A stretch of 4,976 nucleotides of DNA from a virus (IMGVR_UViG_2648501400_000010); one strand, 5' to 3'. Shown: positions 1,053 through 4,766, numbered from the stretch's first letter. The notes: generated by a model not told the origin, from the letters alone. Numbers and translations: made by a program.

Positions 1053-1478
1053 TTAGTGCATCACCACAGCATTCCCTGCCGGGCCGCCGCGATTCATCTG
1101 GTCATACAAAACAACCGCTGACGCAACAAAATCATCGACATCCTTCACCAGCCGATCCCTCCGTTCGACGATCTCACGGTAATATTCAGAACTGTGGCTG
1201 CGCATACGGGCCACCAGCAAAGGCGGCATCGCCTTTTCGATCGCCGGTAACAGAGCCTGCATTTTTTCAACAGCATCAGGGGTGTCCTTCTCCACCCAGC
1301 GGAAAATTTTCTGGGTATTACGGGCCAGGGCTTCCGGATGGCTGTCGTCGTACAGTTCCGGGAACGTCATTCCCAGCTCGAAATACGCTTTGGTAATTTT
1401 CGCAGCCGGTACTTTTTCGCCGTCCGGGTGCGCCCAGACATTCATCGCCATGCGGATGTGTTCATGCTTGATTTTCAT
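1053..1478 (-). CDS. ydaT: YdaT-family protein (CII-position regulator / toxic protein of Rac-type prophages)
   Basis: 141-aa ORF starting MKIKHEHIRMAMNVWAHPDGEKV, which I recognise as the YdaT family of Rac/CP-933P prophages (from memory, not a search). SD GGGGGTG lies upstream of the ATG (complement of 1476-1478). It is immediately downstream of, and overlaps by 17 nt, the Cro-like gene. Confidence 0.85.
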   Translation of the reverse strand: MKIKHEHIRMAMNVWAHPDGEKVPAAKITKAYFELGMTFPELYDDSHPEALARNTQKIFRWVEKDTPDAVEKMQALLPAIEKAMPPLLVARMRSHSSEYYREIVERRDRLVKDVDDFVASAVVLYDQMNRGGPAGNAVVMH

Positions 1479-1737
1479 GAATCACCCCCGCCTCTGGTTG
1501 TGTGTTAGCCTGATACTCGACAGGTAAGCCGTCGGTTGGGTTGGGATAAGTACTGCCATCAATCTCGTGCGGAGTTACTATCCAGCCTGTTGCTTCGCAC
1601 CAGCGTAAAATTTTTTTCCCCGTAAGTTTCGCCCGTCCGGTAATGACATGGCTTACCATCCCTTGGGTTACCCCAACAATTTCAGCAAAATGCTTCTGAG
1701 TTATACCGGAATGATGCAAATATTCTCCAAGATTCAT
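1462..1737 (-). CDS. ydaS: Cro-like HTH DNA-binding protein (YdaS family)
   Basis: 91-aa ORF with a Cro/CI-type helix-turn-helix (QKHFAEIVGVTQGMVSHVITGRAKLTGKKILRW). SD AGGTGA (complement of 1741-1746) is 3 nt from the ATG. It is divergently transcribed from the repressor gene, the classic cro position. Confidence 0.8.
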   Translation of the reverse strand: MNLGEYLHHSGITQKHFAEIVGVTQGMVSHVITGRAKLTGKKILRWCEATGWIVTPHEIDGSTYPNPTDGLPVEYQANTQPEAGVIHENQA

Positions 1738-1844
1738 TGTTCACCTCATGTGATGTCATCACGATCATTAATAGCATTGTTATTTTTAAAAGTAAATAGC
1801 ATCACTATTTCAAAGAGATTAATAATCTTATTAGAATTGAAGGT
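1738..1844. promoter_or_regulatory. Divergent promoter/operator region (OR-like) between the cro-like gene and the repressor gene
   Basis: Perfect 17-bp inverted repeat AAATAG-CATCA-CTATTT at 1794-1810 and weaker copy TAATAG-CATTG-TTATTT at 1769-1785, centres 25 bp apart. Leftward promoter candidates on the minus strand: -35 TTTACT (complement of 1791-1796), 17-bp spacer, -10 TATTAA (complement of 1768-1773). Additional 11-bp palindrome TGATGTCATCA at 1751-1761 near the predicted start. Rightward -10-like AATAAT at 1821-1826 with no good -35. Confidence 0.55.
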
Positions 1845-2345
1845 ATGAAAAGAAAATCCCTGTCAGAGATCGACCTGCAAGCCGCCCAGAGACTGAAAGA
1901 AATCTGGACGGCGAAAAAAAATCAACTAGGGTTAACCCAAGAGCGTGCGGCAGAAATTCTGGGATTTTCGACACAGGGAGCTGTAAGCCATTATCTAAAT
2001 GGTCAGACACCTTTAAATCTTGAGGCTGTTATCAAGTTCGCAGGGTTGCTGCAAGTTCCTCCCGAGTCAATCAGACCAGATATGGCCGAGTTGTTACAAA
2101 TTGTAAGGATGTATCCCCAAGAATCTGGGGAGGACAATGTTGTCACTATATCTGCAGATATGGAACAATCGGAAAACGAACTTCCGTTTAATATAGACCC
2201 CATGGAGCGGGATTTGCTCCAGACGTTCAGGGCTTTCCCCAAAGAAGATAAAGAGAAAATGCTTAAGGAAATGAAGGAGAAAAAAGAATCAATTGAAGAA
2301 ATCGTTGCGCGATGGCTAGCTGCGCAAAAGGGTCGTCGCGCCTAA
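1845..2345 (+). CDS. paaR: Prophage repressor, XRE-family HTH, no peptidase S24 domain (RacR / PaaR-like)
   Basis: 166-aa ORF with an N-terminal XRE-type HTH (LTQERAAEILGFSTQGAVSHYLNGQTP) and an acidic/lysine-rich C-terminus without the Ser-Lys autoprotease motifs of LexA/CI. It sits divergent from the cro-like gene and directly upstream of a small-antitoxin/ParE pair, the paaR-paaA-parE arrangement. The symbol is by architecture only; paralogue 1 versus 2 cannot be told. Confidence 0.8.
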   Translation: MKRKSLSEIDLQAAQRLKEIWTAKKNQLGLTQERAAEILGFSTQGAVSHYLNGQTPLNLEAVIKFAGLLQVPPESIRPDMAELLQIVRMYPQESGEDNVVTISADMEQSENELPFNIDPMERDLLQTFRAFPKEDKEKMLKEMKEKKESIEEIVARWLAAQKGRRA

Positions 2346-2362: not shown

Positions 2363-2554
2363 ATGAGTACAGCCCTTTCCCCGATAATTTCTGAATTTGA
2401 AACAGTCGAACAAGAAAACAGCTATAACGAATGGTTGCGAACCAAAGTGGCAGCAAGCCTCTCAGATCCCCGTCCTGCAATTCCACATGACGAAGTAATG
2501 GCTGAAATGGAAAACCTTATTGCTCAATTAGCTGCAACGAACAGGAGTGAGTAA
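2363..2554 (+). CDS. paaA: Small antitoxin of a ParE-type toxin-antitoxin module (PaaA-like, 63 aa)
   Basis: 63-aa ORF with SD AGGAGG at 2350-2355 and a 7-nt spacer. Its stop TAA overlaps the start of the downstream ParE-like gene (TAATG at 2552-2556). Size and position between a regulator and ParE match the PaaA antitoxins. Acidic, low-complexity and probably disordered. Confidence 0.7.
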   Translation: MSTALSPIISEFETVEQENSYNEWLRTKVAASLSDPRPAIPHDEVMAEMENLIAQLAATNRSE

Positions 2555-2844
2555 TGCTGCCCATTTTATGGCTACCTTCTGCACGTGATGATTTACGTCA
2601 GATCGTAGCCTATATTGCTAAGGAAAACCCTCCCGCTGCACGTAGACTAAAAATACGCATTGAAACATCAGTTTTGTCACTTACTGAACACCCTTATCTG
2701 TACCCACCGAGCGAAAGAGTTCCAAGTCTTCGTGAGATAGTGACTCATCCTAACTACATAATACTTTACCGAGTAACAGCATCTAACATCGAGATCGTAA
2801 ATGTAGTTCACTCACGAAGACAGTATCCAAACAAAACCTGTTAA
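2554..2844 (+). CDS. parE: ParE/RelE-superfamily toxin (ParE-like, gyrase-poisoning class)
   Basis: 96-aa ORF (MLPILWLPSARDDLRQIVAYIAKENPPAARRLKIRIETSVLSL...REIVTHPNYIILYRV...IEIVNVVHSRR) with the sequence pattern characteristic of ParE toxins (W near the N-terminus, DL..I..YIA, R.L...I, PY.G/P, REL/REI, Y.I.YRV, IEI..V.H.RR). Translationally coupled to the upstream small ORF. Confidence 0.85.
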   Translation: MLPILWLPSARDDLRQIVAYIAKENPPAARRLKIRIETSVLSLTEHPYLYPPSERVPSLREIVTHPNYIILYRVTASNIEIVNVVHSRRQYPNKTC

Positions 2845-2858
2845 TCCTTCCTGTCAAC

Positions 2859-2882
2859 AACCACCTTCGGGTGGTTTTTTTC
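2859..2882 (+). terminator. Rho-independent terminator after the toxin gene
   Basis: Stem AACCACC (2859-2865), loop TTCG, stem GGTGGTT (2870-2876), followed by a T-run to 2881, 15 nt after the parE-like stop. A T-tract is present only on the plus strand, so it is unidirectional. Confidence 0.75.
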
Positions 2883-2891
2883 TTGCCACGA

Positions 2892-2934
2892 TAATAGCAC
2901 TGCTATTTACATAATTAAATAGTAGTGGTATTGT
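2892..2934 (+). promoter_or_regulatory. PL-like promoter with paired operators for the rightward small-gene operon
   Basis: Operator-like inverted repeat TAATAG-CACTG-CTATTT at 2892-2908 and weaker AAATAG-TAGTG-GTATTG at 2917-2933, centres 25 bp apart. -35 TTTACA at 2906-2911, 17-bp spacer, -10 TATTGT at 2929-2934. Same motif and geometry as the sites at 1769-1810. Confidence 0.55.
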
Positions 2935-3026: not shown

Positions 3027-3269
3027 ATGAACATGACGGCGGGAACACTTTATATAACAGCGCAGCAGTTTTTTAGTTCCGCTACCCCGGCGTTAAGGGG
3101 AAATGAGGTCAACATGGATATGCTCAATCTTGGCAACAACGAATCTCTGGTATGTGGCGTGTTCCCCAACCAGGACGGTACGTTCACCGCGATGACGTAT
3201 ACCAAAAGCAAAACGTTTAAAACCGAAAATGGTGCCCGTCGCTGGCTGGAAAGAAACTCAGGTGAGTGA
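3027..3269 (+). CDS. Small prophage early protein (80 aa from ATG 3027, or 51 aa from ATG 3114); resembles the small YdaF/YdaG-class proteins of Rac
   Basis: ORF in track. ATG 3114 has the better SD (GAGG 3105-3108, 5-nt spacer); ATG 3027 has GAGG with a 3-nt spacer. The 51-aa form (MDMLNLGNNESLVCGVFPNQDGTFTAMTYTKSKTFKTENGARRWLERNSGE) matches the size I recall for Rac YdaF, but I cannot verify identity. First gene after the PL-like promoter. Confidence 0.6.
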   Translation: MNMTAGTLYITAQQFFSSATPALRGNEVNMDMLNLGNNESLVCGVFPNQDGTFTAMTYTKSKTFKTENGARRWLERNSGE

Positions 3270-4335: not shown

Positions 4336-4577
4336 CCCTCTGTTATCAATTTTCTGGTGACGTTTGGCGGTATCAGTTTTACTCCGTGACTGCTCTGCCG
4401 CCCTTTTTAAAGTGAATTTTGTGATGTGGTGAATGCGGCTGAGCGCACGCGGAACAGTTAAAACCAAAAACAGTGTTATGGGTGGATTCTCTGTATCCGG
4501 CGTTAATTGTTAACTGGTTAACGTCACCTGGAGGCACCAGGCACCGCATCACAAAATTCATTGTTGAGGACGCGATA

Positions 4578-4766
4578 ATGGAAACGTTATTACCAAACGT
4601 TAATACGTCTGAAGGTTGTTTTGAAATTGGTGTCACTATCAGTAACCCTGTATTTACTGAAGATGCCATTAACAAGAGAAAACACGAACGGGAGTTATTA
4701 AATAAAATATGCATTCTTTCAATGCTGGCCCGTTTACGTCCGATACAAAAAGGATGCTGGCAATGA
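4578..4766 (+). CDS. Hypothetical small protein, 62 aa (METLLPNVNTSEGCFEIGVTISNPVFTEDAINKRKHERELLNKICILSMLARLRPIQKGCWQ)
   Basis: Internal ATG of track ORF 4473..4766. SD GAGGA at 4566-4570 with a 7-nt spacer; the upstream ATG at 4473 has no SD. Stop overlaps the start of the next ORF (ATGA at 4763-4766). Confidence 0.45.
   Translation: METLLPNVNTSEGCFEIGVTISNPVFTEDAINKRKHERELLNKICILSMLARLRPIQKGCWQ

Follow-up and report, generated by a model that had tools for sequence, protein, structure and literature searches.

The window, i.e. the complete stretch of 4,976 nucleotides that was analysed, represents the immunity region of a lambdoid cryptic prophage from E. coli that resembles Qin and CP-933P. 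Its segment 1462-2345 is 100% identical in strain FDAARGOS_401, and this strain as well as O104:H4 strains gave a 98.3% match to the whole window, over 78% of the window length. The following genes and elements were annotated:

68-1045, leftward: O-like replication protein
1053-1478, minus strand: YdaT, a CII-like regulator (Pfam YdaT_toxin; 87% identity to an O157:H7 YdaT)
1462-1737, minus strand: cro-like YdaS-family HTH protein of 91 amino acids (Pfam HTH_3; 42% identity to O157:H7 YdaS)
1845-2345, plus strand: repressor of 166 amino acids (Pfam HTH_3/HTH_31; match to the lambda CI N-terminal domain in PDB)
2363-2554, plus strand: PaaA2-family antitoxin (Pfam PaaA2, E 1e-21)
2554-2844, plus strand: ParE toxin (Pfam ParE_toxin, E 7e-18)
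2859-2886, plus strand: strong intrinsic terminator closing the repressor operon (terminator scan; 7-bp stem with four G-C pairs, T-run)
3114-3269, rightward: ydfA-like gene (Pfam DUF1391/YdfA), after a gap of 170 nt
4352-4403: DicF RNA (Rfam, 76.7 bits)
4578-4766: DicB (NCBIfam, 132.7 bits)

The genes of the repressor and of the cro-like protein are divergent and are separated by 107 bp (1738-1844); in relatives this gap comprises about 103-111 bp, if over-extended ORF calls are set aside. The cro-like gene possesses a Shine-Dalgarno (SD) sequence, GAGGTG, 4 nt 5' of its ATG. An identical repressor start is given by PGAP in strain FDAARGOS_401, the DNA of which is identical in this part. The genes for the PaaA2-family antitoxin and then ParE lie behind the regulator gene in the same orientation, first with a gap of 17 nt and then with an overlap, and represent the cargo of the repressor operon. 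The terminator of this operon is kept in the 91.5%-identical E. coli strain 2013C-3492. Small ORFs occur downstream of the ydfA-like gene. Furthermore, a YdaT-type site (TTGATT-N6-AATCAA, one mismatch; 0.04 expected) is located at 1468-1485 at the ydaS/ydaT junction.

Between the two divergent genes, two promoters and three candidate operators were assigned:

1768-1796, minus strand: PR-like promoter for the cro-like, ydaT and O-like genes (sequence match only)
1769-1785: O1, OR1-like candidate operator, TAATAGCATTGTTATTT; TAATAG-CATTG-TTATTT with one half-site changed; overlaps the leftward -10
1794-1810: O2, OR2-like candidate operator, AAATAGCATCACTATTT; AAATAG-CATCA-CTATTT, a perfect 6-5-6 dyad; overlaps the leftward -35
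1809-1837, plus strand: PRM-like promoter of the repressor operon
1817-1833: O3, OR3-like candidate operator, GATTAATAATCTTATTA; degenerate in the window; fills the spacer of the repressor promoter

The PR-like promoter is composed of the -35 hexamer TTTACT (1796 to 1791), a spacer of 17 nt and the -10 hexamer TATTAA (1773 to 1768), and a TG one base upstream of TATTAA (TGCTATTAA) makes the latter an extended -10. The promoter scan did not list this promoter because TATTAA lacks the final T; relatives carry TTGACA or TTGATT at the homologous leftward -35. In the rightward direction, TTCAAA (1809-1814), 17 nt and TAGAAT (1832-1837) form the only consensus match that the scan found in this region, and TAGAAT ends 7 nt before the repressor ATG at 1845. 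A sequence-only reading of this DNA had placed a rightward -10-like element about 18 bp upstream of the ATG. At this distance only the AT-rich TAATAAT (1821-1827) is present, which has no -35 partner and did not come up in the promoter scan; the conserved element is TAGAAT. Moreover, a -10 at about 18 bp upstream would produce an 11-nt leader, which contradicts the leaderless start that was suggested in the same reading.

For comparison, relatives of the repressor were collected, comprising 31 proteins (down to 42% identity) and 15 loci from species-representative genomes as well as further contigs and annotated records. Fourteen loci align across the intergenic region; they belong to E. coli, Shigella sonnei, Citrobacter braakii, Salmonella diarizonae, Yersinia frederiksenii, Rouxiella, Providencia, Proteus and metagenomes. 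A -10-like hexamer (TAnnnT) is kept in 14 of 14, in most of them as TAGAAT or TAAAAT, and in each case it is followed by a gap of 6-7 nt of variable sequence. The A of the ATG is the seventh or eighth base after the hexamer and therefore falls into the normal start window, which speaks for the suggested leaderless-type start of the repressor. It was also correctly stated that the ATG has no properly spaced SD: GAAGG (1839-1843) lies inside the discriminator stretch with one base between it and the ATG, and an SD is not conserved in the 14 aligned loci, which show TGGATGT, TGAACAC, GTTGGAT, AATGCTT etc. at this position. Judged from this arrangement, transcription of repressor-paaA2-parE most likely sets in at the first base of the start codon (1845), 8 nt past TAGAAT, and yields a leaderless mRNA. 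If 1845 is taken as +1, the centres of O1, O2 and O3 fall at -68, -43 and -20. The wider family does not share the leaderless design throughout, as phage Lyz12581Vzw carries GGAGG 5 nt before the ATG of its cI gene.

It might be argued that the repressor mRNA is not leaderless and starts further upstream, either from TAATAAT or from a YdaT-activated PRE-like promoter, and that GAAGG aids its translation. GAAGG is indeed present, a good SD precedes cI in the related phage, and in CP-933P a YdaT-dependent PRE yields an alternative, leadered transcript (PMC8630535), with a YdaT-type site also occurring in the window. However, GAAGG is only 1 nt away from the ATG, compared to the usual 5-9 nt, and is not conserved in relatives; TAATAAT shows the deficiencies mentioned above, whereas the distance from TAGAAT to the ATG is conserved. 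In addition, a PRE transcript could coexist with a leaderless PRM transcript. A start upstream of the ATG is thus regarded as unlikely, and a leaderless transcript from the PRM-like promoter is preferred.

The two dyads O1 and O2 had already been recognized in the sequence as a weaker copy over the leftward -10 and a perfect repeat over the leftward -35, and both are present with their centres at 1777 and 1802, i.e. 25 bp apart. O2 also adjoins the -35 of the rightward promoter, its centre being at -43 from the ATG or putative +1; if the leftward start is taken near 1761, O1 is at -16 and O2 at -41. While the pair as such was correctly described, the number of two sites was too low, since O3 occupies a third position inside the repressor promoter, 23 bp from O2. 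Relative to the repressor ATG, the 14 aligned loci show dyads at three positions, about -75, -50 and -27; O1 and O2 of the window are located at -75 and -50, and O3 is homologous in position at -27. The half-sites are conserved in these loci and the central bases and flanks vary. This conservation at fixed distances from the ATG supports the proposal that the dyads are operators through which the repressor would control the cro-like promoter. Scanning of 16 loci revealed 37 motif matches in the 81-bp OR windows, compared to 44 in the other 107 kb, which corresponds to a 69-fold enrichment. The 44 matches outside OR consist mostly of OL pairs with a distance of 24-27 bp directly behind the repressor operon.

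Comparison with strain 2013C-3492 led to a similar picture: substitutions in OR and OL affect the centres of the operators, the DNA between them and the cro leader, and in O2 the spacer bases alone differ. The sole change in a half-site improves the match, as the OL-proximal site becomes perfect.

The consensus operator is the 17-mer (T/A)AATAGCA-N-TGCTATT(T/A). De novo counting of 5-mer palindromes in the OR regions without the window returned the same 17-mer, TAATAGCA-A-TGCTATTA, in several registers. As strong counterparts of O3, Citrobacter has ATTAGCAATACTATT and three further loci have ATTAGTAAAACTATT; in locus L020 the O3 site is ATTAGTAATCTTATT. On the basis of these alignments, O3 of the window is a decayed copy of a site that is strong elsewhere. 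Beside the dyads, no other repeated element is conserved in the intergenic region of the loci compared. A perfect 6-1-6 palindrome in the leader of the cro-like gene (GTGATGTCATCAC, 1750-1762) was considered as an additional operator and rejected; it is destroyed in strain 2013C-3492 and absent in other relatives. Six operator strings gave no match in the literature searched.

The protein that would bind these sites is related to lambda CI. Residues 2-90 of the repressor, including a basic N-terminal arm, match the lambda CI N-terminal domain with E values of about 1e-9 (phmmer; PDB 7jvt, 1lmb, 3bdn). All 21 homologs compared, the most distant with 46% identity, carry an unchanged recognition-helix segment F41-xTQGAVSHY-50, which fits the conserved half-sites. 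In the lambda CI alignment, E33 and E37 of the repressor correspond to E34 and D38 of the positive-control acidic patch of lambda. An S24/LexA-type self-cleaving domain was not found in the repressor, for which Pfam gives only HTH_3/HTH_31. The C-terminal 56 residues (107-162) match NCBIfam DicA (PRK09706) with an E value of 1.5e-7, the score of 31.2 bits being below the DicA family cutoff of 101. The C-terminal 76 residues, to which the alignment is confined, show 47% identity to an O157:H7 PaaR-like protein; this is the product of the paralogous locus L016, which starts with MMSALE… and not with MQKKE…, and not PaaR2 itself. Relatives of 244 amino acids contain a complete PaaR-like unit (57% identity over 129 amino acids), the HTH of which is missing from the repressor of the window.

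The motif TQGMVSH of the cro-like protein corresponds to TQGAVSH of the repressor. In 18 loci, the cro-like protein has [TS]QGx[VI]S[HQ] at the same place of its HTH. It is therefore probable that the repressor and the cro-like protein read the same half-site. This raises the question whether the dyads are operators of the cro-like YdaS only and the CI-like repressor reads something else. The cro-like protein has the HTH and TQGMVSH, and a site cannot be assigned to one protein from the sequence alone. Nevertheless, the recognition-helix motif common to both proteins suggests that they use common sites, as is the case in lambda, 434 and CP-933P, and apart from the dyads no conserved repeat is available for the repressor in this region. 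In addition, the motif goes with the N-terminal domain of the repressor and not with its C-terminal part or the cargo: it occurs with a DicA/PaaR-type tail, with the complete PaaR-like unit of the 244-amino-acid forms, and in the phages Lyz12581Vzw and Rac-SA53. In the functional phage Lyz12581Vzw, the C-terminal region of CI is long and of the CI type, and RefSeq lists this CI as 'LexA family transcriptional regulator'. Conversely, the motif is absent from an O157:H7 locus that served as negative control, which has the same gene order, a YdaT with 87% identity and a related C-terminal repressor domain, combined with a different N-terminal HTH. This control does not separate the repressor from the cro-like protein, as its YdaS is also different (42% identity). 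Taken together, it is very unlikely that the dyads serve the cro-like protein only, and binding of both proteins to them is predicted.

As genes of a toxin-antitoxin system belong to the operon that starts here, the dyads could also be autoregulatory operators of a PaaA2-ParE complex, as in canonical type II systems. This is highly improbable, because the operators and the OL pair are present whatever cargo follows (PaaA2-ParE, a HipA-like pair, HigBA or none), PaaA2 was reported to be without a DNA-binding motif (PMC8630535), and the Pfam match spans the 33-residue PaaA2 domain only.

If up to one mismatch is allowed, the window contains four matches to the motif AATAG-N5-CTATT (1770, 1795, 2893 and 2918), compared to 0.13 expected. 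A symmetrised scoring matrix, which was derived from the OR sites of 12 other loci only and left out the window, puts exactly five sites of the window on top (22.3, 21.0, 18.8, 15.2 and 12.9 bits), and the sixth reaches 7.8 bits. Among these, O1 has the highest score (22.3 bits), O2 reaches 18.8 bits and O3 is the fifth (12.9 bits). O2 falls below O1 once the inner GCA/TGC positions count, and since it has the perfect outer dyad yet the lower matrix score, neither of the two can be named the stronger site. Taken alone, O3 is marginal, as 13.3 bits is the 95th percentile of the shuffle maxima; it may be non-functional, because it does not outscore the best site found in a shuffled window. Chance palindromes, for which the AT-rich intergenic region and the non-significant count at up to two mismatches in the window (5 vs. 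2.35 expected) could be quoted, are a practically negligible explanation, as none of 200 dinucleotide-preserving shuffles reached four matches at up to one mismatch, the positions are conserved across genera and the independent matrix agrees; the dyads are real.

A second operator pair (2892-2933), which was missed in the sequence-only reading, lies just past the operon terminator at a further promoter:

2892-2908: OL-distal candidate operator, TAATAGCACTGCTATTT; perfect motif match, 21.0 bits; overlaps the -35 of the PL-like promoter
2906-2934, plus strand: PL/dicBp-like promoter, TTTACA, 17 nt, TGn and TATTGT (promoter scan)
2917-2933: OL-proximal candidate operator, AAATAGTAGTGGTATTG; one mismatch, 15.2 bits; overlaps the -10 of the PL-like promoter

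The two motif matches of this pair (2893 and 2918) are 25 bp apart, and with respect to TTTACA-17-TATTGT they show the same geometry as O1 and O2 with respect to the leftward promoter. The promoter heads the ydfA-like gene, dicF and dicB. In strain 2013C-3492, the OL-distal site differs in spacer bases only, and the OL-proximal site has the perfect CTATT half-site. Of the 16 loci scanned, 12 possess operator pairs with a distance of 24-27 bp behind the repressor operon. A 12-bp 'terminator-like' stem at 2898-2927 was rejected as a terminator; it consists of the two adjoining OL dyads facing each other.

The statistical excess of the motif, its positional conservation, the domain homologies and the promoter geometry were observed directly. 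On this basis and by analogy with known switches, it is very likely that 1738-1844 represents the right operator region of a lambda-type switch in a Qin/CP-933P-like cryptic prophage, with an OL pair and a leaderless repressor operon. Repressor dimers at O1 and O2 would block the leftward promoter, which drives ydaS, ydaT and the genes for replication. At O2, with its centre at about -43, the dimer would be placed like CI at OR2 and may stimulate the repressor's own promoter; such an autoactivation is plausible because of the O2 geometry and of E33 and E37 at the positions of the lambda acidic patch. O3 would serve negative autoregulation of the repressor and would act as the entry point for the cro-like protein, which, with its nearly identical recognition-helix motif, probably competes for the sites of the repressor. 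Because the OL pair covers the -35 and the -10 of the PL/dicBp-like promoter, the same repressor would also silence ydfA-dicF-dicB. OL and OR are 1.1 kb apart, and looping between them may occur. As the repressor has no S24 domain, switching is expected by an antirepressor or by stochastic bistability and not by RecA-stimulated cleavage.

The closest layout is that of lambda. Beside the homologous N-terminal domain of the repressor, both systems have three 17-bp dyads between divergent promoters, which are 25 and 23 bp apart in the window and 24 and 23 bp apart in lambda. In lambda, the centre of OR2 is at about -42 relative to PRM, and relative to PR those of OR1 and OR2 are at about -17 and -41; compared to -43 and to -16 and -41 in the window, the two layouts are nearly superimposable. 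Further similarities are an additional operator cluster, which belongs to a PL-type promoter on the far side of the repressor operon, and a -10 located 6-7 nt before the ATG; lambda cI transcribed from PRM is leaderless. In contrast to lambda, the half-site is AATAGCA instead of TATCACC, the C-terminal domain of the repressor is of the DicA/PaaR type instead of the self-cleaving S24 type, and OL has two recognisable sites instead of three. Furthermore, the cro-like protein is of the HTH_3/YdaS type and carries the recognition-helix motif of the repressor. A motif common to both proteins is nearer to phage 434 than to lambda.

With prophage CP-933P of O157:H7, the window shares the gene order (O-like, ydaT, ydaS, then regulator, paaA2 and parE, then PL), a PaaA2-family antitoxin, a ParE toxin and YdaT with its junction site. 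In CP-933P, the leaderless nature of paaR2 was demonstrated by 5' RACE, N-terminal sequencing and mass spectrometry, and PaaR2 and YdaS both footprint the 97-bp intergenic region and each repress PR, PRM and the PL beyond the toxin-antitoxin genes (PMC8630535). YdaT activates PRE in this prophage, the locus is bistable (PMC8630535), and YdaT binds TTGATT-N6-AATCAA at the end of ydaS (PMC9986795). A leaderless regulator design and operators at the intergenic region and at PL are predicted for the window as well. The C-terminal domain of the repressor is related to the PaaR-like protein of the paralogous O157:H7 locus L016 described above. The operator sequence differs from the published CP-933P repeat GTTTAGTAA, which has no match in 1738-1844 or 2880-2940; elsewhere in the window it gave only two matches with one mismatch, which is at chance level.

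In prophage Qin, lambda-like operators mediate the repression by DicA of dicC and of dicBp, from which ydfABC-dicF-dicB is transcribed (PMC10448788). DicA is relieved by the antirepressor Rem or by bistable/stochastic switching, and not by RecA (PMC10448788). Like DicA, the repressor of the window is short and non-cleavable, has a related C-terminal domain and lies next to a divergent cro-like gene. The promoter in front of the ydfA-like gene, DicF and DicB resembles the one of ydfA-ydfB-ydfC-dicF-dicB-ydfD in Qin, and its repression is predicted here. In contrast to Qin, the N-terminal domain is CI-like and not DicA-like, with a DicA score far under the family cutoff, a toxin-antitoxin pair is inserted between the repressor and the dicBp-like promoter, and the partners are YdaS and YdaT instead of DicC. 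According to these sequence relationships, the window mixes a CI-like DNA-binding domain, a DicA/PaaR-type C-terminal domain, CP-933P-type cargo together with YdaS/YdaT, and a Qin-type dicBF arm.

The locus is a predicted heteroimmune relative of a thoroughly understood switch; it offers no new mechanism, extends the lambda/CP-933P/Qin paradigm to another specificity class and illustrates how prophage repressors exchange DNA-binding and oligomerisation domains. Published binding data for this class of prophage repressors were not found in the literature searched, and the analysis provides a testable map of five operator sites and three promoters, together with a 17-mer consensus. Pathogenic E. 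coli carry this prophage, and the same repressor is predicted to hold down the cro/ydaT/replication arm and the ydfA-dicF-dicB arm, the latter of which encodes cell-division inhibitors, while the repressor operon itself carries a ParE toxin system. With the operators known, it can be predicted which strains are homo- or heteroimmune and what a flip of the switch derepresses. This is useful for annotation and for the prediction of immunity groups, and will not surprise a specialist.

A wider reading is put forward tentatively and is regarded as less probable than not. One uncharacterised, widespread immunity specificity group may be made up of the CI-like N-terminal domain with TQGAVSH, the AATAGCA-N-TGCTATT operators and a cro-like protein to match; it might extend beyond Escherichia, Providencia and Proteus to Rodentibacter and Methylobacter. 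It may have been recombined with at least three C-terminal modules, namely the DicA/PaaR-type tail, the complete PaaR-like unit, which brings a second HTH, and a self-cleaving LexA-type domain in a functional Stx-type phage. The leaderless PRM operon might offer a slot in which toxin-antitoxin, HipA-like, HigBA or restriction-modification genes travel as cargo. If this is true, the decay of O3 in the window would have removed negative autoregulation and locked the repressor-PaaA2-ParE operon on.

Control of the cro-like/ydaT transcript had also been compared to RacR of the Rac prophage, which is divergently transcribed from ydaS-ydaT and represses them (PMC5700373). This likeness holds as a functional analogy only; the nearest precedents are lambda CI with OR, PaaR2-YdaS-YdaT of CP-933P and DicA-DicC of Qin. 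The 'dicA' product of phage Rac-SA53, which is not K-12 RacR, is 54.5% identical to the N-terminal domain of the repressor of the window, and its locus shows the same operator type.

Domains are shuffled in the repressor family, as seen on comparing the window repressor (1845-2345), P0013-P0022 and the PaaR-like regulator of the paralogous O157:H7 locus L016 (3882-4283). The 244-aa relatives are fusions of a CI-like N-terminal domain with a complete PaaR-like protein and thus possess two HTH domains; the second of these is missing from the 166-aa form of the window. Their PaaR-like unit showed 57% identity to the O157:H7 PaaR-like protein over 129 aa. A related N-terminal domain (51.7% identity) was also found in the functional phage Lyz12581Vzw, on a CI protein that is annotated as a member of the LexA family.

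The operator type of L016 differs from that of the window. Because L016 (3860-3885) nevertheless keeps a -10-like TAAAAT 6 nt upstream of the regulator ATG, as in loci with window-type operators, the leaderless layout seems to be common to repressors with different DNA-binding domains.

Two further elements were detected on the ydaS/ydaT side of the repressor gene:

1468-1485, YdaT-type site at the overlap of the ydaS stop and the ydaT start, TTGATTTTCATGAATCAC
1750-1762, perfect 6-1-6 palindrome, GTGATGTCATCAC

The first deviates by one mismatch (chance expectation 0.04 in the window) from TTGATT-N6-AATCAA, the YdaT operator identified by footprinting in CP-933P (PMC9986795). Perfect copies of this operator occupy the same junction in the loci L016, L017 and L019. 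The site at 1468-1485 probably marks a PRE-like, YdaT-activated promoter directed toward the repressor. Relative to the predicted cro-like transcript, the palindrome spans about +1 to +13; in strain 2013C-3492 (91.5% identical) it is broken, and no conservation was found in other relatives.

Downstream of the predicted PL-like promoter of the window, the genes of two division inhibitors were identified:

4352-4403, plus strand, DicF small RNA (Rfam, 76.7 bits)
4578-4766, plus strand, DicB cell-division inhibitor (NCBIfam, 132.7 bits)

By analogy to dicBp of Qin, both are probably silenced by the window repressor.

Among relatives, the cargo between the repressor gene and OL/PL varies (L022 3287-4860; L024 3112-3839; L026 3310-5267; L025), and this slot contains a HipA_2 and DUF3037 pair or HigB-HigA, or is empty. 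In Lyz12581Vzw, cI is followed by a SAM-dependent methyltransferase and a BsuBI-type restriction endonuclease; an OL pair was not found at this locus. The slot resembles a moron or defence slot whose genes are expressed under the repressor promoter, as with rexAB in lambda.

A series of near-repeats was observed in the O-like replication gene:

540-700, within the minus-strand gene, GACGGGTCAAC, GAGGGGTCAAT and GACGGATCAGG among others

These are reminiscent of the iterons of a lambda-type origin within the O gene.
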